Shown here piece by piece: positions 30,600 through 64,000 of a DNA stretch of 64,000 nucleotides. The stretch comes from a virus, in UHGV virus genome UHGV-1374997; one strand, 5' to 3'. A program made the translations under genes and the position numbers. Position 1 is the stretch's first letter, and every line of letters begins with the position of its first letter. The notes beneath the pieces are model-generated. The model saw only the letters and a program-made list of their open reading frames with translations. It ran no database searches and was not told the DNA's origin.

Positions 30600-31895
30600 A
30601 CCGGAATTTTTACTCTGAAAGTATCTCTTAACATTTCCCTATAAACTGAGTATAATTTAATCATGAAAAGAATGCAAGCATATAAATTCCAGTTACGTCC
30701 TAAAGCCAAGCAAGCAAATCTCATGTTGGGTTTTGCCGGATGCTGTCGCTTTGTATGGAATAAGGCGCTTGCATTAGAGAAAGAAACCTATCAAGAGGAG
30801 GGCAAACGTCTTGGGTATTATAAACTTGCTGGTTTGCTCAAAGATTGGAAAAAGGAAGAAGAAACATCTTTTCTTGCTAGAGCACACTCTCAGATATTGC
30901 AGCAGGTACTAAAAGATCTTGATCGGGCTTACAAAAATTTTTTTGAGAAGCGTGCGGATTTTCCACGATTCAAGAAGAAGGGTGCCCACAATACCTTTCG
31001 ATATCCGCAAGGCTTCAAGTTGGATGAAGGAAATAGTCGCGTTTATCTTCCCAAAATAGGTTGGGTGCGTTACAGAAAAAGCAGGGCTATAGAAGGGACG
31101 CTAAAGCAAGTAGCGGTTTCTCTTTCTGCCGGAGAGTGGTATGTCTCCATCCTGACTGAGAGGGAAGTAGTTGAACATATCCATCCCTCTCAAAGCTCTA
31201 TTGGTATTGATATGGGTGTTGCCCATTTTGCAATGCTCTCTGATGGAAGCACAATTGAACCGTTGAACAGCTTTCGCAAATATGAAAAGAAGTTGGCAAA
31301 ACTGCAACGCAAACAAGCGAGATGCAAAAAGTTTTCCGCCAACTGGCAAAAGGTCAAATCACGCATTCAACGCTTGCACCTCCACATAGCTAATGCTCGC
31401 AAGGACTTTTTGCACAAGGCAAGCACAATGATTAGCAAAAACCACGCTGTTGTTGTACTTGAAGACTTGAAAGTGCGGAATATGTCCAGCTCAAAGACCG
31501 GAGGAAAACGCAAGTCAGGATTGAATAAATCTATATTGGATCAAGGGTGGTTTGAGTTCCGGCGGCAACTGTCTTACAAGCTGGCATGGATGGGTGGATC
31601 TTTGACCGCAATTCCTCCTCAGTATACCAGCCAGACCTGTAGCCGTTGCGGATGTGTAGATAAACAAAACAGACAAACGCAAGCCAAGTTTAAATGTATA
31701 GCTTGCGGATTTGAGATTAACGCCGATCACAATGCGGCGTTGAATATCTTGGCGGCAGGGCTTGCCGTTACAGCCTGTGGAGCGGGAAAGGCTCAAGCGC
31801 CCGCGTTGAATCAGGAACCCGCCTATAGTTTGGCCTAATTGGGCTTTACTGATAGGAATCCCTTGTTTGTAAGAATAAGGGAGGATGCCAAAACG
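30600..31895 (+). mobile_element. IS200/IS605-family TnpB-only element, copy 1
   Basis: Left end lies near ctgaaag (30615). Right end is taattgggctttactgataggaatccc + hairpin + gggaggatgccaaa. No tnpA. Inserted between the L-like and K-like tail genes. Confidence 0.7.
30663..31838 (+). CDS. tnpB: TnpB (OrfB_IS605) RuvC-like RNA-guided nuclease
   Basis: RuvC-I IGIDMGV, RuvC-II VVLEDL, Zn finger CSRCGC...CIACG, RuvC-III NADHNAALNI. 391 aa. Confidence 0.9.
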   Translation: MKRMQAYKFQLRPKAKQANLMLGFAGCCRFVWNKALALEKETYQEEGKRLGYYKLAGLLKDWKKEEETSFLARAHSQILQQVLKDLDRAYKNFFEKRADFPRFKKKGAHNTFRYPQGFKLDEGNSRVYLPKIGWVRYRKSRAIEGTLKQVAVSLSAGEWYVSILTEREVVEHIHPSQSSIGIDMGVAHFAMLSDGSTIEPLNSFRKYEKKLAKLQRKQARCKKFSANWQKVKSRIQRLHLHIANARKDFLHKASTMISKNHAVVVLEDLKVRNMSSSKTGGKRKSGLNKSILDQGWFEFRRQLSYKLAWMGGSLTAIPPQYTSQTCSRCGCVDKQNRQTQAKFKCIACGFEINADHNAALNILAAGLAVTACGAGKAQAPALNQEPAYSLA

Positions 31896-32042
31896 GATAA
31901 AATATGAAAATGAGAGACAAATTTTCAAAATACACAGTAATCCTCCAACTTTAGGCTGGACAGGATGCCAAAACGGATAAAACATGAAAATGAGAGACAA
32001 GTTTTCAAAATACATAGGAATCCCTTTTGTGGATCACGGAAT
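31883..32042 (+). repeat. tandem direct repeat, 2 x 80 bp (about 60 bp conserved)
   Basis: ggatgccaaaacggataaaa(t/c)atgaaaatgagagacaa(a/g)ttttcaaaataca... at 31883 and 31963. The second copy holds the real RBS and start of the NlpC/P60 gene. Confidence 0.8.
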
Positions 32043-45213: not shown

Positions 45214-46493
45214 CTGAAAGCACTTCTTGACATTTTCTTACAAACAAGCTATGGTTTAAGCCATGAAAAGAATGCAAGCATATAAATTCCAGCTCCGCCC
45301 CAAAGCCAAGCAAGCAAATCTCATGTTGGGTTTTGCCGGATGCTGTCGCTTTGTCTGGAATAAGGCGCTTGCATTGGAGAAAGAAACCTATCAAGCGGAG
45401 GGCAAACGTCTTGGGTTTTATAACCTTTGTAAGGCCCTCCGCGATTGGAAAAAGGAAGAAGAAACATCTTTTCTTGCTGGAGCACACTCTCAGATATTGC
45501 AGTTTGTATTGAAGGATCTTGATCAGGCTTACAAAAATTTCTTTGAGAAGCGTGCAAATTTCCCACGATTCAAGAAGAAGGGTGTCCACAATACCTTTCG
45601 TTATCCGCAAGGCTTCAAGTTGGATGAAGGAAATAGCCGCATTTATCTTCCCAAAATAGGTTGGGTGCGTTACAGAAAAAGCAGGGTCATAGAAGGGACG
45701 CCAAAGCAAGTAGCGGTTTCTCTTTCTGCCGGAGAGTGGTATGTCTCCATCCTGACTGAGAGGGAAGTAGTTGAACATATCCATCCCTCTCAAAGCTCTA
45801 TTGGTATTGATATGGGTGTTGCCCATTTTGCAATGCTCTCTGATGGAAGCACAATTGAACCGTTGAACAGCTTTCGCAAATATGAAAAGAAGTTGGCAAA
45901 ACTGCAACGCAAACAAGCGAGATGCAAAAAGTTTTCCGCCAACTGGCAAAAGGTCAAATCACGCATTCAACGCTTGCACCTCCACATAGCTAATGCTCGC
46001 AAGGACTTTTTGCACAAGGCAAGCACAATGATTAGCAAAAACCACGCTGTTGTTGTACTTGAAGACTTGAAAGTGCGGAATATGTCCAGCTCAAAGACCG
46101 GAGGAAAACGCAAGTCAGGATTGAATAAATCTATATTGGATCAAGGGTGGTTTGAGTTCCGGCGGCAACTGTCTTACAAGCTGGCATGGATGGGTGGATC
46201 TTTGACCGCAATTCCTCCTCAGTATACCAGCCAGACCTGTAGCCGTTGCGGATGTGTAGATAAACAAAACAGACAAACGCAAGCCAAGTTTAAATGTATA
46301 GCTTGCGGATTTGAGATTAACGCCGATCACAATGCGGCGTTGAATATCTTGGCGGCAGGGCTTGCCGTTACAGCCTGTGGAGCGGGAAAGGCTCAAGCGC
46401 CCGCGTTGAATCAGGAACCCGCCTATAGTTTGGCCTAATTGGGCTTTACTGATAGGAATCCCCCGCTTTTAGGCGGGGGAGGATGTCAAATAA
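45214..46493 (+). mobile_element. IS200/IS605-family TnpB-only element, copy 2
   Basis: Left end cctgaaagcacttcttgacatttt. Right end taattgggctttactgataggaatccc + ccgcttttaggcgggg hairpin + gaggatgtcaaataa. Confidence 0.7.
45263..46438 (+). CDS. tnpB: TnpB (OrfB_IS605) RuvC-like RNA-guided nuclease
   Basis: 391 aa. The C-terminal 230 aa are identical to copy 1. The N-terminal region matches copy 3. Confidence 0.9.
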   Translation: MKRMQAYKFQLRPKAKQANLMLGFAGCCRFVWNKALALEKETYQAEGKRLGFYNLCKALRDWKKEEETSFLAGAHSQILQFVLKDLDQAYKNFFEKRANFPRFKKKGVHNTFRYPQGFKLDEGNSRIYLPKIGWVRYRKSRVIEGTPKQVAVSLSAGEWYVSILTEREVVEHIHPSQSSIGIDMGVAHFAMLSDGSTIEPLNSFRKYEKKLAKLQRKQARCKKFSANWQKVKSRIQRLHLHIANARKDFLHKASTMISKNHAVVVLEDLKVRNMSSSKTGGKRKSGLNKSILDQGWFEFRRQLSYKLAWMGGSLTAIPPQYTSQTCSRCGCVDKQNRQTQAKFKCIACGFEINADHNAALNILAAGLAVTACGAGKAQAPALNQEPAYSLA

Positions 46494-46582
46494 CTCCGTC
46501 GACGGTCGTGGACGCATTTCAATATTTAAAACTCTGCGCTATATTGCCCCCATGATGTTAATCATCACTTGGGGGCTTTATT

Positions 46583-50022: not shown

Positions 50023-52158
50023 ATGGCTAATGTAAAACCCATAACGACTAAACAATTCAATCAAAATAAAAAGCATATCACCGACATCCATTGGTACGCC
50101 GACAATGTTCTTAATGGAAATGTTCAGGTCTGTAAATACATTAGAGCATTATGCAAGAACTTTAAAGATGACCTCGCCAATAAAGACCTTGATTTTTATT
50201 TTTCAGAAGAATCAGCTATCCGAGTAATTTGTTTTATCGAAAATATGGTGCATGTCAAGGGCGTTCTTACCGGGCAACGGTTAAAACTTGAACCTTGGCA
50301 GAAATTTTTTGTCGGTAACATCTTCGGCTGGCTGGACAAGAAAAACAATCTCCGCAGATACAGAGAGGCAGCTCTTATCGTTCCCCGAAAAGCTGGCAAG
50401 GCTTTAGCTGTAAGCACTCCAATCCCTACTCCCGAGGGTTGGGTCACGATGAATGATTTAAAGCCCGGAGACGCCGTTTATGGGCCAAATTCGGATATAC
50501 GGAGAGTAGTAGCCGCAACGGAAGTGATGTACGGAAGGCCGTGCTACGAAATTTCTTTCAATGATGGTTCTTCTATTACGGCTGACGCGGAACATCTTTG
50601 GAAAATTGATGGTAAGAATATCGTAACCTCCGAAAGTCTGCATCAAATTTTGTCTCACAATGGCAGAAAGCCTAAAGTATGGGTAGCCCCGAATGTAAAA
50701 CGGCATGATGGCGAGACGGTACCTGTGGTAAGATTCATTACGGATTGTAAGCCTGTGGAAAGCGTTCCAGTGAAGTGTATACAGGTTGATAATGAGGACG
50801 GAATGTATCTTTGCGGGGAAACGTATATTCCGACTCACAATAGCAGCCTTGCGGCGGCTATTGGACACTATATGTTGGTTGGTGAAAAAGAAAAAGGTTC
50901 GGAAGTATACTGTGGCGCAACCACGGAAGTTCAGGCATTTGTGCTGTTCAACATTGCTCGGGACATGATTGTCGCCAATAAAGCATTTGAAGAGGCATTC
51001 GGCCTGACTTATACTAAAGAGTCTATTCATGCACAATCAACACTTTCTACGTTCAAGCCTATTATCGGAAGCCCAAAGGACGGTAGTAACCCTCAGTGCG
51101 CTATCGTTGACGAGTATCATGAACATCCTTCGGACGCGCTGTATGACTCGTTGAAGCTCGGTATGGGCGCTAGACAACACCCCCTCTTGCTTGTTACTAC
51201 TACCGCAGGGACAAACATCAAAGGGCCTTGCTATCGTTACGTTGAGCAAGGCAGAAAGGTCGTGTTGGGGAAAGCAAAGAACGATAGATTATTTTACATG
51301 GAGTTTACCATTGATGACACGGACAAATGGGAAGATTTTTCGTGCTGGATTAAAGCCAGTCCAAACTTCGGAGTTTCCGTATCCGAAGAGTTCTTGCGCG
51401 AGCAATACGAAATAGCCAAATCATCACAGTACAAGCGCTCATCTATTCTTACCAAAATGCTGAATGTTTGGAACAACGAATCGGTGGGATGGATTGACTT
51501 TCCTAAATGGCTTAATTGTACTGACAGAAATCTAAAGATGGAAGATTTTGAAGGCGAGAAATGCTGGATTGGCATTGACTTAGCCTCTAAAGTCGACTTA
51601 ACTGCAATGGTTGCCGTCTTTAAGCGCGATGGTAAATTCTATGTTTTCGGAAAATACTATCTTCCTTCTGATACTGTAGATAGGCCGGAGAATGACCATT
51701 ATCGGGGCTGGCGAGATGAAGGCTGGCTGACCGTAACGCAAGGGGCTCGAACGGACTATCACGCTCTGGAAGAAGACCTGCAAAATTGGGCTGATAAATA
51801 TGCTATTCAGGAAGTAGCATACGACCCTAGAGAAGCCGAATATCTTATGCAGAATATCCGGGAATGGGCAGCTTTTGAATGTATTGAGTTTACCCAATCC
51901 TCTGCCACTTTCTCTGAGCCGATGAAAGAGTTTGAAGCTGCGTACCTTAACGGGGAACTTTTCCACCAGAATGACCCTATCCTCAATTTCGCAGCAGGGA
52001 ATGTCGTCCTGAAATCCACAACGAACAAACTTGTCTATATGACCAAAACGGCAAATGAAAATAAAATCGACCCGATGGTTGCTATGATTATGGCAATCGC
52101 TAGAGCAATGGAAGATAAAGAAGAAGAGGCGTCAGATCCGTTTATTATGTTCCTTTAG
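50023..52158 (+). CDS. terL: terminase large subunit, interrupted by a mini-intein
   Basis: Removing residues 127-273 joins the Walker A motif PRKAGK|SSLAAAIG, matching the canonical VPRKNGKS[TS]LAAA. The C-terminal nuclease domain is present. Confidence 0.8.
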   Translation: MANVKPITTKQFNQNKKHITDIHWYADNVLNGNVQVCKYIRALCKNFKDDLANKDLDFYFSEESAIRVICFIENMVHVKGVLTGQRLKLEPWQKFFVGNIFGWLDKKNNLRRYREAALIVPRKAGKALAVSTPIPTPEGWVTMNDLKPGDAVYGPNSDIRRVVAATEVMYGRPCYEISFNDGSSITADAEHLWKIDGKNIVTSESLHQILSHNGRKPKVWVAPNVKRHDGETVPVVRFITDCKPVESVPVKCIQVDNEDGMYLCGETYIPTHNSSLAAAIGHYMLVGEKEKGSEVYCGATTEVQAFVLFNIARDMIVANKAFEEAFGLTYTKESIHAQSTLSTFKPIIGSPKDGSNPQCAIVDEYHEHPSDALYDSLKLGMGARQHPLLLVTTTAGTNIKGPCYRYVEQGRKVVLGKAKNDRLFYMEFTIDDTDKWEDFSCWIKASPNFGVSVSEEFLREQYEIAKSSQYKRSSILTKMLNVWNNESVGWIDFPKWLNCTDRNLKMEDFEGEKCWIGIDLASKVDLTAMVAVFKRDGKFYVFGKYYLPSDTVDRPENDHYRGWRDEGWLTVTQGARTDYHALEEDLQNWADKYAIQEVAYDPREAEYLMQNIREWAAFECIEFTQSSATFSEPMKEFEAAYLNGELFHQNDPILNFAAGNVVLKSTTNKLVYMTKTANENKIDPMVAMIMAIARAMEDKEEEASDPFIMFL
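50401..50841 (+). other. mini-intein (147 aa, Ala1, class-3-like WCT features) in terminase P-loop
   Basis: Block A ALAVST. Block B TADAEHLW. Blocks F/G VKCIQVDNEDGMYLCGETYIPTHN followed by extein Ser. There is no homing-endonuclease domain. Confidence 0.7.
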
Positions 52159-53421: not shown

Positions 53422-53643
53422 CTACCCCCTATTACTACTCATTATGAGAAGTCTAGAAAATGCTTCATCTCTACATTCCTCGGAAGAAAAAGAATACTCA
53501 AAAACATGGTCTTTATTGCTTCCGCATAGTATAATTTGAAGTTTCATACTGCCATTTTCCTTACTCATTGAGATTATTCTATGCGTGTCAATGGCTTCTA
53601 CGAATTCGTTATTCATTCCAAATCGAAAATTTACCAATTTCAT
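53422..53643 (-). CDS. hypothetical protein
   Basis: 73-aa ORF. Confidence 0.3.
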   Translation of the reverse strand: MKLVNFRFGMNNEFVEAIDTHRIISMSKENGSMKLQIILCGSNKDHVFEYSFSSEECRDEAFSRLLIMSSNRG

Positions 53644-54011
53644 GCCGATCCCTTCCCTTTCCGATAGTCGGAGGTTATTTTTGAATGACAGGATTTACAT
53701 AACGCCATAAGGTTGTTTTCGTCAAGTATTTTTCCACCCTCGTTAATAGGAATGATATGGTGGACTTCGTTAGCCACGTTAGGGAATGGGGTCGTTTTCT
53801 CGCATTCCTCGCAGAAGGGGTGCTTCCTGAGATAACGCTCACGAACTTTCTTCCACCTTGAATCGTACCCTCTTTCCGCCGGGGTTCCGCGCTTCATATC
53901 ATATCGTTTATCTGACGAGATTCTGTGCTTGGCACAATCTTCGCAGTACCCCGAAGGGTGATCCGTTGGCTTTTTACAGTGCTTACATGGTTTTTTTGGT
54001 CTAGGGGGCAT
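53640..54011 (-). CDS. HNH endonuclease
   Basis: Cys pairs CKHCKK...CEDC and CEEC...HHIIP...N...LCKSCH. Confidence 0.75.
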   Translation of the reverse strand: MPPRPKKPCKHCKKPTDHPSGYCEDCAKHRISSDKRYDMKRGTPAERGYDSRWKKVRERYLRKHPFCEECEKTTPFPNVANEVHHIIPINEGGKILDENNLMALCKSCHSKITSDYRKGKGSA

Positions 54012-54107
54012 ATATGGACCTCCATAATTAATCGTATTTTATTGATAAGGTTCCAGCGGAAAGAAACCACGCCAGTCTATAGACAGCTCCACTAAGTTGG
54101 TCTTTGC

Positions 54108-55375
54108 TTATTTGACATCCTCCCCCGCCTAAAGTCGGGGGATTCCTATCAGTAAGGCCCAATTAGACCAAACTATAGGCGGGTTCCTGATTCAACGCGG
54201 GCGCTTGAGCCCTTCCCGCTCCACAGGCTGTAACGGCAAGCCCTGCCGCCAAAATGTTCAACGCCGCATTGTGATCAGCGTTAAATTCAAATCCGCAAGC
54301 TGTACATTTAAATTTGGCTTGCGTTTGTCTGTTTTGTTTATCCACACATCCGCAACGGCTACAGGTCTGGCTGGTATACTGAGGAGGGATTGCGACCAAA
54401 GATCCACCCAACCATGCCAGCTTGTATGTCAACTGCCGCCGGAACTCAAACCACCCTTGATCCAATATAGACTTATTCAAACCTGACTTGCGTTTTCCTC
54501 CTGCCTTTGAGCTGGACATATTCCGCACTTTCAAGTCCTCAAGCACAACAACAGCGTGGTTTTTGCTAATCATTGTGCTTGTCTTGTGCAGAAAGTCCTT
54601 GCGAGCATTAGCTATGTGGAGGTGCAAGCGTTGAATGCGTGATTTGATCTTTTGCCAGTTGGAGGAAAACTTTTTGCATCTTGCTTGTTTGCGTTGCAGT
54701 TTTGCCAACTTCTTTTCATATTTGCGAAAGCTATTCAACGGTTCAATTGTGTTTCCATCAGAGAGCGTTGCAAAATGAGCAACACCCATATCAATACCAA
54801 TAAAACTTTTAGACGGATGAATAGGCTCCGGAGCTTCACGCTCTGTCAGAATGGATACATACCATTCTCCAGCAGAAAGAGAAACCGCTACTTGCTTGAG
54901 AGTCCCTTTTATAGCCCGGCTTTTTCTGTAACGCACCCAACCTATTTTGGGAAGATAAACGCGGCTATTTCCTTCATCCAACTTGAAGCCTTGCGGATAG
55001 CGAAAGGTGTTGTGAGCACCTTTCTTCTTGAATTGAGGGAAATTTGCACGCTTCTCAAAGAAATTTTTGTAAGCCTGATCAAGATCCTTCAATACAAACT
55101 GCAATATCTGAGAGTGCGCTCCAGCAAGAAAAGATGTTTCTTCTTCCTTTTTCCAATCACGGAGGGCCTTACAAAGGTTATAAAACCCAAGCCGTTTTCC
55201 CTCCGCTTGATATGTTTCTTTCTCCAATGCAAGCGCCTTATTCCAGACGAAACGGCAGCACCCGGCAAAACTCAACATGAGATTTGCTTGTTTGGCTTTA
55301 GGACGTAACTGGAATTTGTATGCTTGCATTCTTTTCATGGCTTAAATTATACTCAGTTTATAGGTAAATGTCAAG
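54108..55375 (-). mobile_element. IS200/IS605-family TnpB-only element, copy 3 (inverted)
   Basis: The right end matches copy 2 through gggggaggatgtcaaataa. The left end carries a 68-bp copy-specific segment with a G9 tract. Beyond that, 55443-55476 matches the upstream flank of copy 1. Confidence 0.7.
54163..55338 (-). CDS. tnpB: TnpB (OrfB_IS605) RuvC-like RNA-guided nuclease
   Basis: 391 aa. Motifs IGIDMGV, VVLEDL, CSRCGC...CTACG and NADHNAALNI are intact. About 93% identical to copies 1 and 2. Confidence 0.9.
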   Translation of the reverse strand: MKRMQAYKFQLRPKAKQANLMLSFAGCCRFVWNKALALEKETYQAEGKRLGFYNLCKALRDWKKEEETSFLAGAHSQILQFVLKDLDQAYKNFFEKRANFPQFKKKGAHNTFRYPQGFKLDEGNSRVYLPKIGWVRYRKSRAIKGTLKQVAVSLSAGEWYVSILTEREAPEPIHPSKSFIGIDMGVAHFATLSDGNTIEPLNSFRKYEKKLAKLQRKQARCKKFSSNWQKIKSRIQRLHLHIANARKDFLHKTSTMISKNHAVVVLEDLKVRNMSSSKAGGKRKSGLNKSILDQGWFEFRRQLTYKLAWLGGSLVAIPPQYTSQTCSRCGCVDKQNRQTQAKFKCTACGFEFNADHNAALNILAAGLAVTACGAGRAQAPALNQEPAYSLV

Positions 55376-60049: not shown

Positions 60050-60403
60050 TTAAGAATTAAAAACGGTGCGCCTACGAAGACTAGAGCATCCTTTAACACG
60101 ATGATTTTCGTCCCGTACAAGTTCGTCGGGGCAAAGCAAATCAATCCTGTCAGACGAATCAAAAACCATGTTCGTTACGATGTACATAACACCCAATTCC
60201 GGAGCGGGCAAGCCTTTAATCTCTCTTTCCACAATTTCACTTACGGGAACAAACCCCTTAGGGTCATGAGCAGACAAAACAGTATCATATTCTCGGGCAT
60301 AGTTAACCCGAGCCATGCCTTCCGGTTCAAAACGAAATAATTCTGTAGTCCCAGAAGGATTGTAAACATTAATCTGGTGCCCGGTGAAATTACGAATCTT
60401 CAT
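60050..60403 (-). CDS. hypothetical protein
   Basis: 117-aa ORF. Confidence 0.4.
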   Translation of the reverse strand: MKIRNFTGHQINVYNPSGTTELFRFEPEGMARVNYAREYDTVLSAHDPKGFVPVSEIVEREIKGLPAPELGVMYIVTNMVFDSSDRIDLLCPDELVRDENHRVKGCSSLRRRTVFNS

Positions 60404-60965: not shown

Positions 60966-61943
60966 TTAGATATCAAAAACAATTTCAGCCATATCAAAGT
61001 ACAGGTAATCACTATAAGTAATAGCTCCGTTACTATTCTCTGTCGCGGAGATTGCGCGTCTCCGAATTTCCGAGATTACCCTAGACAGTTCCGTAATACT
61101 TCTATCCTGATAGGCGTCCGCAAGTTCATGCAAAAGCTGCCTACGGCTCACTGCGTAGGAGCATTCCGTGCTTCTGACAAAAAGATCTCTCTGACTTTCA
61201 GCGGTAAACGCCACAGGTACAGTCTTGCGTCGCGTAAAAACGCCCTTGTAAAAAATAATCTTTTCTTCTTTCACCATGAAAGCATAGTAGCATCGAACAG
61301 GGGATTCCTTAGTTTCCTGCGCAATATCCTCCTGAGTATTAACTTCCTGTGTATGAGCTTCTCTCTGGATGTTAGCTTCTCTCTGGATGTTAGCTTCTCT
61401 CTGCATAGTAGCTTCCTCCTTTTCCTTTACATACAACTTAAGTTTATCCCAATCGTCAGCAGTGATTTCTGAGCACAACTTATTATCTCCAAAAGGGCAC
61501 TCAACATCCTTATTTACGAGAGGACACGTATTGTAGCCGTAGAGAATTTTATTATTACATTGTCTGGCAAGATCTTCAACCAAATTTTCTTCAAACAAAG
61601 ATTTATAAGAATCTATGCCTTCATCAAGAAAACTGGAGTCAATGAGAGGAAAAGGTGCTTCGACCTTCTTCGGCTGGTCTTCATGTTCTACGCTTTTCAA
61701 TTTATTATCCTCCTTTTTTTCTACCATAGCTCTCACCTCGCTCCAATGACTTTCATCTACGTTACCACACATAGCCTTGAGCGGGCATCGACCTTCTTTT
61801 GCATCTGGGCAGACTGCATATACCGTGCAACGCCTGGATGATGTTCTACAAAGATGAGCTAGCTCTTTATCCGTCTTTCTACTTAAAATGAGAGTAAAAA
61901 GTTCTTTCCTTCGCTCTACGTTCCTCTGATAAATATTTGACAT
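60966..61943 (-). CDS. hypothetical Cys-rich protein with internal 18-bp tandem repeats (REANIQ x3)
   Basis: Contains CPDAKEGRCPLKAMCGN and CPLVNKDVECPFGDNKLC. The tandem repeat ttctctctggatgttagc x3 lies around 61360-61415. Confidence 0.45.
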   Translation of the reverse strand: MSNIYQRNVERRKELFTLILSRKTDKELAHLCRTSSRRCTVYAVCPDAKEGRCPLKAMCGNVDESHWSEVRAMVEKKEDNKLKSVEHEDQPKKVEAPFPLIDSSFLDEGIDSYKSLFEENLVEDLARQCNNKILYGYNTCPLVNKDVECPFGDNKLCSEITADDWDKLKLYVKEKEEATMQREANIQREANIQREAHTQEVNTQEDIAQETKESPVRCYYAFMVKEEKIIFYKGVFTRRKTVPVAFTAESQRDLFVRSTECSYAVSRRQLLHELADAYQDRSITELSRVISEIRRRAISATENSNGAITYSDYLYFDMAEIVFDI

Positions 61944-62373: not shown

Positions 62374-62706
62374 TTACTTAAAGAGTGATTCGAAAAGCAG
62401 GAGTCCCAAACAACCTAACCCAAATACACCTATAAAGACCAATGCGGAGCATATCAAAGTTTTGGCTAAATCCTCCCAAAAAATTTTAATAAAAATATAT
62501 TTTAGATGTTCGGTCTTTTGGGAAACCTTTTTCCCCGGAACTACGTAATTATAGGAGCATCTCCGGCATCTCCAAACGAATACCGTTTCTCCATCTTCCG
62601 TTGTTTTTATATCTGGTGTATAACCATTCAAAGGCCAGTCCTCACAGATAGGGCATTTATCCGGGGCCTTATATGCTGGCCTATCCACAATATCGCTGTA
62701 TTTCAT
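62374..62706 (-). CDS. Zn-ribbon + C-terminal TM anchor protein (paralog)
   Basis: CPICED...CRRCS, with a C-terminal hydrophobic helix. Same architecture as its paralog. Confidence 0.45.
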   Translation of the reverse strand: MKYSDIVDRPAYKAPDKCPICEDWPLNGYTPDIKTTEDGETVFVWRCRRCSYNYVVPGKKVSQKTEHLKYIFIKIFWEDLAKTLICSALVFIGVFGLGCLGLLLFESLFK

Positions 62707-62847
62707 TTTAAGATACCTCCTCTTTTTTATCGTTTCGTCCCAATAATCGTAAAGAAGAAAATCACGCTAAGAATTGCTATAACGTAAATAAAATTATCTG
62801 GAATCATGTATGTTTTCCTTTTTTCGTGATTTTATGACTTCGTGATT

Positions 62848-63336
62848 TTATGATTTATTAAATTCGTTTCGCTTCTGCCTCCATATCTCACCACCCAAAA
62901 TTCCCGGAGGAACAATCCATTGATTTGTTCTTCCATAATTTGCACCGTTATTTGCTTCGCGGTAATTTCTGATATACATTTGCATCCACGTATCACTCAA
63001 AGCACCATTCTCTTTTACAAAATACGGAGTTCCTCTATAAGGTAATCTGGACCTATATATAAAAATCTCACGCCCTCCACTCTTCCAATACTTTCTCGTG
63101 TTTTCAAAATTAAAAGAGAACTTTACCTTTTCTACGAGCATCACAGCAGGTTCAAATTCGCCTTTATTGGGATTAAAAACCTCAAGCATCCCCGCTTTAA
63201 CTCTGTCCCGGCGATTGGTTACAAACGATTTTACGAAACCAAGAATTTCATTGGAATCAACACCAATGATAACACCTGTGATATTATGCGTGTGAAGGTA
63301 TCCTATGAAATGACGAGTTTCCGAGTTATCTTTCAT
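62848..63336 (-). CDS. hypothetical protein (first gene of leftward operon)
   Basis: Start reassigned to MKDNSE with RBS aaggag. Confidence 0.4.
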   Translation of the reverse strand: MKDNSETRHFIGYLHTHNITGVIIGVDSNEILGFVKSFVTNRRDRVKAGMLEVFNPNKGEFEPAVMLVEKVKFSFNFENTRKYWKSGGREIFIYRSRLPYRGTPYFVKENGALSDTWMQMYIRNYREANNGANYGRTNQWIVPPGILGGEIWRQKRNEFNKS

Positions 63337-63433
63337 TACCTCATCTCCTTGTGTTAAGATCAACCTACCCTACTTTGAGTTTTCATGCAACAAAATTTTC
63401 TATTTTATGAAAAAATTTTAGCTCCGAAAATAC

Positions 63434-63590
63434 TCCCCACCTGTCCCAAAAATGTTAGCTTGGATCGAGATCCCCACCTCGTCCAAAAATGTTAGCTTGC
63501 CTCGCATCCCCCACCTCTTTCGTTTACGTTAGCTCGGCTGGCATTCCCCACCTGTCCCAAAAATGTTAGCTTGGATCGAGATCCCCACCT
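63434..63590. repeat. array of about 4.3 direct repeats of roughly 37 bp (iteron-like)
   Basis: Units begin TCCCCACCT....AAAATGTTAGCTTG. Units 1 and 4 are identical (63434-63470, 63545-63581). Units 2 and 3 are diverged. Confidence 0.8.
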
Positions 63591-63950
63591 TGTATTAGAG
63601 CGCACGCGACCTTGATTGACTGCACAATCAGAATAGATTGATTGTACGCGCAACCAATATTGCCCCACGGGTACAGAGCAAGAGCGCGTCCATAGATGTA
63701 AGAGCGGGACGCCACAAGGTGAAGCGCGGCCACGTAAAAACGCGAGCTTATACACTAGACACCGTCCATAAGTTTTTTATGGCTGGAGGATGTCCTGCAC
63801 CAGTAAAACGGCTCATTGTCTAGTACTTTGTTCCCACATAAATCGTTTCTGTGGCCTTTTCTTCTCTTTCATGGGTTAACCTCCATGTCTCTTTAAAGAG
63901 CCACTTAAATAGGCATTTTTGAGCGTCTTTTTTCTGTAGTCTAGGTAAGC

Positions 63951-64000
63951 GGGTTAGACGTGCTCAAGCTGTACCGTGCTCAAGCTGTACCGTGCTCAAG
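63951..64000. repeat. 16-bp tandem repeat cgtgctcaagctgtac x about 3 (truncated by window end)
   Basis: Seen directly in the sequence. Confidence 0.7.

Follow-up and report, generated by a model that had tools for sequence, protein, structure and literature searches.

A conserved array of five bipartite 37-bp repeats upstream of a promoter-like element in a human-gut siphovirus lineage

Close to one end of a 64,000-nucleotide stretch of the virus genome UHGV-1374997, the whole of which was analysed and is called the window below, a run of direct repeats of about 37 bp precedes a leftward gene. What does this run of repeats do for the phage that carries it? The original prediction took it for an iteron-like, protein-binding array at the head of a leftward operon and placed three roles side by side: an origin of replication, a partition site or an operator. 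We examined the anatomy of the repeats, their conservation among relatives and the elements that surround them, and weighed these roles against several others.

PHROG and Pfam scans of the window identify a siphovirus-type phage. The plus strand, up to ~52 kb, encodes an SNF2-like helicase, a DUF2800 nuclease, an Enc34-type SSB, DNA polymerase A, RtcB and NrdD, together with portal, major head protein, tape measure, tail proteins and the large terminase. From ~52 kb to the window end runs a leftward block of small genes, mostly without assigned function, and no tRNAs were found in the window. The remaining genome contributes a D5/VapE-type primase-helicase, a RecD-like helicase, two Rha/KilAC regulators and an MT-A70 methylase. 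No integrase, repressor or plasmid-maintenance genes were found, and the genome has the look of a virulent siphovirus that brings its own replication machinery. The Pfam scans extended over the window and ~20 kb of flanking genome and took in the replication module, the genes in the middle of the genome and most of those in the leftward block, structural-module ORFs and many small ORFs excepted; about 90% of the genome was examined in all, and PHROGs were run on ten large proteins. INPHARED holds no close relative, the DNA polymerase being at most 36% identical to those of known phages. The phage recurs in human-gut metagenomes as contigs of 70–90 kb, and one relative assembles as an 88.2-kb circle.

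The repeats themselves are real. Tandem Repeats Finder reports a period of 37, 4.2 copies and a score of 163 at exactly 63434–63590, with an overlapping row that starts at 63411, and a second repeat search of the window agrees on the register, with spacings of 37/74 bp. Read on the minus strand, which is that of the leftward genes, the array occupies 63406..63590 and consists of five complete head-to-tail two-box units (63590–63554, 63553–63517, 63516–63480, 63479–63443 and 63442–63406), where four full units and a partial one had been described. Each unit comprises AGGTGGGG (box 1), N11, AGCTAA c/a r T (box 2) and ~9 variable nt. The box centres lie ~20 bp apart, equal to two helical turns, and site-to-site spacing is 37 bp, or 3.5 turns. 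As had been noticed, units 1 and 4 do not differ at all (37/37) and units 2 and 3 are diverged; all other pairs match at 20–28/37. The motif TCCCCACCT is present four times in the array and five times in the window against an expectation of 0.31, and GGTGGGG-N11-AGCTAA, with up to two mismatches allowed, occurs five times in 64 kb, always inside the array (expected 0.91).

Stop codons fall in each of the six frames inside the array in all 13 sequence variants, which makes the array non-coding. The overlapping 87-aa ORF at 63492..63755 is thus spurious, as suspected, and a protein-coding origin of the repeats, the one outcome named beforehand as fatal to the array, did not materialise. The units are not a CRISPR either, in agreement with the original prediction: they abut, and their variable parts amount to just 11 + 9 nt. 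No cas genes were found, only TnpB copies elsewhere in the window. Across the window as a whole, no Rfam family passed its gathering threshold, and around the array there were only chance-level matches at E ≤ 5.

Relatives of the array were gathered by protein-anchored and DNA-pattern searches, which recovered it from nine IMG/VR contigs, five further metagenome-collection contigs with ENA accessions and several ENA/Logan assemblies. It is present in every recovered relative of this ~88-kb gut siphovirus, in 10 distinct arrays with 31 distinct units. In the profile of the 31 units, little or no variation is seen at positions 1–8 and 20–25 and at T28; C13, A15 and C17–18 are semi-conserved, and the others are free. 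Among orthologous units, 1 of 75 box columns is variable as against 58 of 110 linker columns (Fisher p = 9e-16); the window's own five units give 0/15 and 22/22, respectively (p = 1e-10). Despite substitution of up to 46%, the 31 distinct units contain no indels. All 10 distinct arrays keep a spacing of 37 bp, with a single exception of 47 bp at one junction in one lineage, a difference of +10 bp, or one helical turn. The number of units is likewise stable, at five, or four in the lineage having the 47-bp junction. Arrays from independent metagenomes are identical, while the 16-bp and 26/47-bp repeats beside them readily gain and lose copies. With the boxes invariant, the linkers free, the spacing fixed and indels absent, selection acts on the two boxes and their geometry, which is the pattern expected of a protein-binding array and bears out this aspect of the iteron-like description.

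The array is one part of an intergenic cassette. It sits in a region of ~0.7–1 kb, the size of which differs among relatives, after a strong terminator that follows a GP88-family gene. On the leftward strand the order is 16-bp repeat, leader, small ORF, GC-rich segment, palindromes, junction, array, A/T tract, TTGCAT-N17-TAGGTT, and ribosome-binding site with a 162-aa gene (62848..63336, minus strand). The outermost element, a hypervariable 16-bp tandem repeat (CGTGCTCAAGCTGTAC, 63959..64000), is cut by the window end. The conserved leader motif AAAGACGCTCAAAAATGCCtATTTAAG (63904..63930, minus strand) opens the cassette; an antisense terminator considered at this motif was discarded, the tool calling one in a second cassette (see below) only and none in the main one. 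The small ORF with its ribosome-binding site (MKEKKRPQKRFMWEQSTRQ, 63813..63872, minus strand) keeps its first 12 codons across lineages and in the second cassette.

Next comes a GC-rich 110-nt segment (63651..63760, minus strand) with a conserved multi-helix fold, a candidate structured RNA. The fold has 29 pairs, is 97% paired and includes five compensatory pairs, and the opposite strand folds worse. This strand-specific folding implies leftward transcription, by which the array may be transcribed too. Two 20-bp palindromic operator-like sites (63612..63657), TTGATTG-N6-CAATCAg and TTGATTG-N6-CAACCAA, lie 26 bp apart and are unique in the window (two observed, 0.02 expected); among relatives there are from one to at least four copies, in 26- or 47-bp units. 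Directly 5′ of unit 1, the junction GGTCGCGTGCGCTCTAATACA (63591..63611, minus strand) recurs unchanged in every lineage and in the second cassette. A boxA/nut-like identity for the junction (GCGCTCTAATACAA) was rejected: GCUCU is all that is shared, and beyond GCUCU the likeness is not conserved in other lineages.

On the gene side of the array, an A/T-rich tract (63391..63405, minus strand) runs from the last unit to a putative −35 element and, with the tail of unit 5, reads AAAATTTTTTCATAAAATAGAAAATTTTG. The tract is ~75% A+T over ~50 bp, resembles the A-tracts that precede the phage's canonical promoters, and forms a weak all-A/U hairpin in the centroid fold. Beyond it we place a candidate weak sigma-A promoter at 63362..63390 (minus strand), with −35 TTGCAT (63390–63385), N17 and −10 TAGGTT (63367–63362), inferred from conservation: TTGCAT-N17-TAG..T is kept in three lineages whose spacers otherwise differ. 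The array would then lie about 65–250 bp upstream of a degenerate sigma-A promoter. A promoter scan of 62700–64000 calls nothing, TTGCAT-N17-TAGGTT falling under the tool's threshold. The ordinary promoters of the phage are near-perfect TTGACA-N17-TATAAT or TAGTAT, each with an A-tract upstream, and the element after the array is a candidate degenerate version of that design.

These surroundings refine the position first assigned to the array. It does stand at the start of one transcription unit, but within a longer leftward block; co-directional genes continue upstream, so the block itself starts before the array. The block runs ~27 kb further past the window end, and the downstream gene is therefore not the first leftward one. 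Between the ATG at 63336 and the end of the nearest box there are 81 bp, somewhat less than the 100 bp first given.

In two lineages, a shorter paralogous cassette lies ~6 kb upstream. It contains the leader, the small ORF, a CAATCAA element, the junction, two degenerate units and an A-tract, and it precedes a tool-confirmed canonical promoter, TTGACA-17-TAGATT. The small-ORF variant of the window matches the second-cassette variant of another lineage. T4-type PeSL (promoter-early stem-loop) elements, each a promoter plus a stem-loop, are mobile regulatory cassettes; they too are repeated regulatory modules that open early transcription units and appear to recombine between copies, but they differ in having no arrays of bipartite repeats.

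Elsewhere the units are scarce. No further copies of the array were found in the window or in ~60 kb more of related sequence, and a search of ~186,000 species genomes for the strict double-unit pattern found none. With a relaxed pattern, 30 scattered matches at chance level were obtained. An isolated perfect site in L005 is probably due to chance, as it lies within coding sequence and its homologues have two mismatches. One of the 30 relaxed-pattern matches, an array of four 38-bp repeats with similar boxes in a Pirellulaceae MAG, situated between membrane-protein genes, was judged coincidental. The same judgement was reached for a resemblance of box 1 and some linker extensions to 16S rRNA (12 vs 4.4 shared 8-mers; p ~ 0.016, a value inflated by overlapping k-mers).

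Among the roles first proposed, the operator or regulatory one is favoured over origin and partition, because the promoter-like element is kept in three lineages, the palindromic sites are adjacent, and the cassette recurs at a second, canonical promoter. In operator arrays the sites stand at most a few hundred bp upstream of a promoter, and further promoters have them too; both features are found here, the first of the two promoters being a putative one. We consider the array probably to be a protein-binding DNA array of some kind. More specifically, and more tentatively, we read it as part of a promoter-proximal cassette in which a protein binds the array cooperatively and thereby controls the weak sigma-A promoter next to it. 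The ligand acting on the DNA as a protein, the promoter as a real one and the direction of regulation are all three points that we infer.

In this regulatory reading, the array would be a cis-acting DNA element that presents five evenly spaced, same-orientation sites to a sequence-specific DNA-binding protein. Each site would be bipartite, AGGTGGGG plus AGCTAAyrT, and contacted along one face of ~25 bp of DNA, as suggested by box centres ~20 bp apart and the semi-conserved C13, A15 and C17–18 midway between them. A phage or host protein would load cooperatively along the array and build a higher-order nucleoprotein complex. This complex would switch TTGCAT-N17-TAGGTT, the putative start of a transcription unit in the leftward early-gene block, probably acting jointly with whatever binds the neighbouring palindromic sites. 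Candidate binders are the two Rha/KilAC proteins, from the same early block, and the lineage-specific 162-aa protein. The spacing between the last unit and the −35 is not fixed (18, 24, 41 or 47 nt), which makes a phase-dependent class I/II activator unlikely.

Several observations count against the regulatory reading. No gene for the binding protein was found near the array, the genes adjoining it showing no recognisable DNA-binding domain in Pfam and PADLOC scans; the scan calls no proximal promoter; and the second cassette occurs in two lineages only, with box 1 degenerate. With a period of 3.5 turns, moreover, adjacent sites would face opposite sides of the helix, an unusual arrangement if the cooperativity is of the simple side-by-side kind. 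The lack of an RNA-structure signal, by contrast, speaks for a role as DNA: the array transcript folds at z = +0.35, with no excess stability. If transcribed together with the upstream structured segment, the array may nonetheless have a role at the RNA level.

Known systems of comparable layout offer some guidance. The omega-heptad arrays upstream of the pSM19035 promoters P-copS, P-delta and P-omega, ParR–parC of R1 and pSK41, and the direct-repeat operators for the repressor of the Bacillus phage phi105 are same-orientation repeats to which small repressors bind cooperatively. They resemble the array in having several head-to-tail asymmetric sites that overlap promoters or lie just upstream of them. 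Recurrence of one array type at more than one promoter, and selection on sites and spacing, are further points in common. The sites of those systems are 7–20 bp, contiguous or in helical phase, whereas those of the phage array are 8 + 9 bp, 11 bp apart, with a 37-bp period. A further difference is that scans of the phage genome yielded no ribbon-helix-helix protein, ParR-like protein or partition NTPase.

The alternative that survives best assigns the array a function as RNA: transcribed leftward, it would act as a repetitive non-coding RNA resembling a type III antitoxin. In the toxIN family, repeats of 31–62 nt (mean 38) are present in 1.9–5.6 copies upstream of, and on the same strand as, toxins averaging 168 aa, and type III loci are common in gut Firmicutes (PMC3401426). 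Five units of 37 nt on the same strand, with a 162-aa gene 0–400 bp downstream, fit these numbers, and the phage is one of the human gut. Phages can also carry antitoxin-mimic repeats in intergenic DNA, with near-identical pseudo-ToxI expansions (PMC3475682), which gives the idea a precedent. Additionally, the upstream segment is seemingly transcribed leftward as well, and a constant unit length would be required of a processed RNA too.

The 162-aa protein is lineage-specific, has no assigned function, and is always encoded by the first or second gene after the array. Two AF2 runs gave it pLDDT values of 40 and 44, too low to judge its fold. Its family amounts to two clusters among 1.8 billion representatives in an exhaustive profile search, and its distribution coincides with that of the array, as would suit a toxin and its antitoxin. 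Against this, the protein has no toxin homology: no signal of ToxN, AbiQ, CptN or TenpN was obtained with Pfam, PADLOC (E ≤ 1) or a PDB profile search (E ≤ 10). A gene of 95–99 aa intervenes between the array and the 162-aa gene in two lineages, and the protein's single distant homologue lacks an array.

The nucleic acid itself argues in the same direction. No terminator stands between array and gene in the window or in L016; a promoter-like element is found there instead, and the second cassette has a canonical promoter at the corresponding position. Type III arrays have a promoter upstream; here no consensus promoter was found there, and the conserved structured segment hints at leftward transcription. 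RNAalifold predicts no pairs for the unit, and hand-picked stems are 62–66% paired. Compared with shuffles, the second of two candidate stems shows no excess and the first is marginal (2/500 shuffles), with 62% of cells paired. The phage units match at only 20–28/37, in contrast to the mostly perfect ToxI and CptI repeats, and no bacterial genome searched has these boxes in an array that could be the mimicked antitoxin.

Compared as a class, the type III arrays (ToxI/ToxN, AbiQ/antiQ, CptIN, TenpIN) and pseudo-ToxI share with the phage array repeats of ~37 nt, about five copies and a position upstream, on the same strand, of a ~165-aa gene, as well as the setting of a phage and a gut Firmicutes-type host. 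In the type III class the toxin is an endoribonuclease of the ToxN/CptN/TenpN/AbiQ family, a short palindromic Rho-independent terminator separates its gene from the repeats, each repeat is a pseudoknot with two nested 3–4-bp stems, and the repeats are mostly identical, a pattern that the phage array does not show: it lacks a terminator, toxin homology and pseudoknot-like pairing, its units are diverged outside the boxes, and a promoter-like element precedes the gene. We therefore regard an antitoxin-like RNA as unlikely. Its more explicit form, in which the array is cut into 37-nt RNAs set by the two boxes that partner the 162-aa protein or a host abortive-infection nuclease, stands a slightly smaller chance. 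Were these 37-nt RNAs real, they would represent a new, sequence-unrelated family of type III-like toxin–antitoxin systems or anti-defence decoys, with diverged repeats, in a virulent gut phage. Such an outcome would matter more, as it adds a new protein–RNA toxin–antitoxin or anti-defence family.

A replication origin, with the units as iterons for a phage initiator and the A/T-rich tract as the unwinding element, is the next possibility, and we hold it to be improbable. The array has in common with the iterons of R6K, F, P1, RK2 and lactococcal theta plasmids, and with lambda ori, its same-orientation repeats, conserved core and regular spacing. An adjoining tract of ~75% A+T is present as well, but it resembles the A-tracts of the phage's ordinary promoters. 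Three repeat families crowd the intergenic region, and the circular assembly breaks in the region of the array; contigs break here because of the hypervariable 16-bp repeat. In contrast to this array, iterons usually measure 17–22 bp, are spaced at ~22 or 33 bp and lie beside an initiator gene. The original prediction advised looking for an initiator or ParB-like gene past the window end; no initiator or ParA/ParB signature was found within 9 kb upstream or 11 kb downstream, and there is no DnaA box in 63337–64000.

Cumulative GC skew, a check recommended with the original prediction, shows no inflection at the array. It rises to ~52 kb and then falls smoothly, running straight through the array, across which skew is uniformly negative; the minimum lies at the divergence point immediately upstream of the helicase. 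A far stronger candidate origin is located ~20 kb away, directly downstream of the D5/VapE-type primase-helicase gene. This 1.2-kb non-coding region has 29% GC; CAACTGATCACA is present there at least 10 times, in both orientations, together with A/T-rich inverted repeats of up to 125 nt. The recurrence of the units at a second locus, upstream of a promoter, argues against an origin as well. On these grounds the origin proposal is not sustained.

A third alternative treats each unit as a promoter for a redirected host RNA polymerase, with box 1 replacing the −35 and box 2 serving as the −10; the redirecting factor would read box 1, and five starts would feed the early operon. The units could be promoter-like because box 2 also fits the −10 pattern G(−14)nT(−12)A(−11)nnnT(−7), and all 31 units have the equivalents of −14 G, −12 T, −11 A and −7 T. 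Box 1 would then fall at −34 to −27; a purine always occupies position 35, where the +1 is predicted, and only A or T is found at −6 to −4. However, the near-perfect TTGACA-N17-TATAAT/TAGTAT promoters of this phage look quite different, and promoters 37 bp apart would occlude each other. Nowhere else in the window, nor in ~90 kb of related sequence, does box 1 occur in a promoter context; the units are not met with elsewhere as single copies, and the scans found no sigma factor or RNA polymerase gene. Tandem promoters of this kind are thus distinctly improbable.

The remaining role from the original prediction, a centromere-like partition site for a centromere-binding protein, could double as an operator in the manner of the omega-heptad arrays of inc18 plasmids. 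The omega/parS sites of pSM19035 sit upstream of several promoters. A same-orientation tandem array upstream of an operon, at two promoters in two lineages, is the likeness on the phage side. F-plasmid sopC (12 × 43 bp) and the family of repeats of EBV oriP (20 × 30 bp) likewise have a period that exceeds the site and one site per unit, but their sites are palindromic, act in segregation and have known partners, whereas those of the phage are asymmetric. No ParA/ParM/TubZ-type NTPase, ParB or ribbon-helix-helix protein appeared in the Pfam scans, which excluded structural-module and many small ORFs. Combined with the virulent-siphovirus character of the genome, its own replication machinery and the lack of any integrase, repressor or plasmid-maintenance gene among those found, this leaves a partition site very improbable.

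A functionless minisatellite left over from tandem duplication is hardly credible: the adjacent 16-bp and 26/47-bp repeats do act like unstable minisatellites, but the array has invariant boxes amid substitution-saturated linkers, no indels, and a copy number stable over lineages and samples. A packaging (pac/cos) site was also considered and rejected, the terminase and HNH genes being 10–11 kb off and the units recurring at a second locus.

The regulatory reading thus makes the array a new instance of a familiar type of control element, in which the bipartite site and the 3.5-turn phasing are unusual. If it is correct, an uncultured human-gut phage lineage has a cleanly defined regulatory element, with an exact motif, a fixed spacing and natural variants. 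Phasing by 3.5 turns on a bipartite 25-bp site would inform the geometry of the complex that forms there. Likewise, AGGTGGGG-N11-AGCTAAyrT repeated in 37-bp phase would be a direct bait for the regulator that times early-gene expression in these phages.

Several further elements accompany the array in the intergenic cassette. A GC-rich segment of 110 nt (window 63651-63760, minus strand) has a multi-helix fold that is conserved on the leftward strand, with 29 pairs that are 97% paired over 9 variants and 5 compensatory pairs. In a shuffle control, 0/500 sequences gave a fold as good, and the long-range helices are lost on the opposite strand. The segment matched no Rfam family, and one lineage carries unrelated sequence in its place. 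Two 20-bp palindromes (TTGATTG-N6-CAAyCAA), 26 bp apart, lie at window 63612-63657 and form a pair that is unique in the window (0.02 expected). Among relatives the palindromes range from one to at least four copies, arranged as tandem units of 26 or 47 bp, and they resemble operator sites of a dimeric repressor.

At the edge of the window, a 16-bp tandem repeat, CGTGCTCAAGCTGTAC (63959-64000), continues past the window end, with copy numbers between about 1.5 and over 13 across near-identical relatives. One lineage carries a 17-bp variant, GCATGAGCATAGATGCA, and the repeat region is the break point of several assemblies. Between this repeat and the GC-rich segment lies a small ORF (window 63813-63872, minus strand) that has a good ribosome-binding site and encodes a very basic peptide, MKEKKRPQKRFMWEQSTRQ. 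Codons 1-12 are kept in all lineages and in a second, paralogous cassette, and the 3′ part forms a variable or truncated tail.

This second cassette, paralogous to the complete intergenic cassette and shorter than it, is confined to two lineages and was located on two contigs of phage relatives (L009 ~10330-9920, minus strand; L005 ~1-400). It runs from a terminator and a leader motif through the small ORF (MKEKKRPQKRFMRE), a CAATCAA element, and the junction to two degenerate array units spaced by 43-44 bp; an A-tract and a promoter (TTGACA-17-TAGATT) close it. The small-ORF variant of the window matches the second-cassette copy and not the main-cassette copy of the window's closest relatives, which suggests that the main and second cassettes have recombined.

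The array itself (window 63406-63590, minus strand) shows two resemblances to other sequences. Box 1, together with some extensions of it, matches universally conserved segments of 16S rRNA, as seen with the 16S rRNA gene in L051; the segments are AAGGTGGGGAT, GTGGGGAAT, TGGGGAGTA, ACAGGTGG, and CGTAAACGA, in sense orientation throughout. Array and 16S rRNA have 12 distinct 8-mers in common, where controls averaged 4.4 (p~0.016, although the 8-mers are not independent), and the resemblance is probably a coincidence. A relaxed pattern search of species genomes returned a tandem array of 38 bp × 4.1 in a Pirellulaceae MAG (L049:5742-5895), carrying GGTGGGGG-N9-CAGCTAAC and a CCAGCGAAAGCTGG hairpin. 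Its neighbors are membrane-protein genes, and it was rejected as an unrelated, chance resemblance.

Elsewhere, the window holds three TnpB (IS605 OrfB) genes of 391 aa, at 30663-31838 (plus strand; 3′ flank 31839-31983), 45263-46438 (plus strand; 3′ flank 46439-46582), and 54163-55338 (minus strand; 3′ flank 54012-54162). Identity between the first two is 96%, and the third agrees with them in length, Pfam profile, and 3′ flank. No TnpA was seen. All three copies are followed by the same ~54-nt element, TTGGGCTTTACTGATAGGAATCCC-hairpin-GGAGGATGyCAAA, presumably the end of an omega-RNA scaffold, in which both hairpin arms vary between copies (CCCCCG/CGGGGG versus CCCTT/AAGGG).

The large terminase (711 aa; 50023-52158, plus strand) may carry an insertion or intein, since its PHROG profile matches fall in separate stretches (N-terminal 15-130, C-terminal 273-705); an HNH endonuclease gene lies nearby (53640-54011, minus strand). 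For a 117-aa protein (60050-60403, minus strand), Pfam gave no match and PADLOC gave one, to the model “Unk_01, unknown small protein sometimes fused to CARF” (E=1.4e-14); this protein may have an anti-defence role related to cyclic oligoadenylate. Cys-rich modules (C..CP..C..W) make up a 325-aa protein (60966-61943, minus strand), which matched no family; their number differs among relatives (protein lengths 301, 325, 508, and 520 aa).

Outside the window, a strong candidate for a replication origin was found in the relative L073 (IMGVR_UViG_3300045988_150758). A 1.2-kb non-coding region of 29% GC (L073:1856-3083) immediately follows the primase-helicase gene (L073:3084-5681, minus strand) on its downstream side and contains A/T-rich inverted repeats of up to 125 nt and at least 10 copies, in both orientations, of a 12-14 bp iteron (CAACTGATCACA / TGTGATCAGTTG). 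As this iteron was also seen in the relative L072 and not in five other relatives, specificity may differ between lineages.
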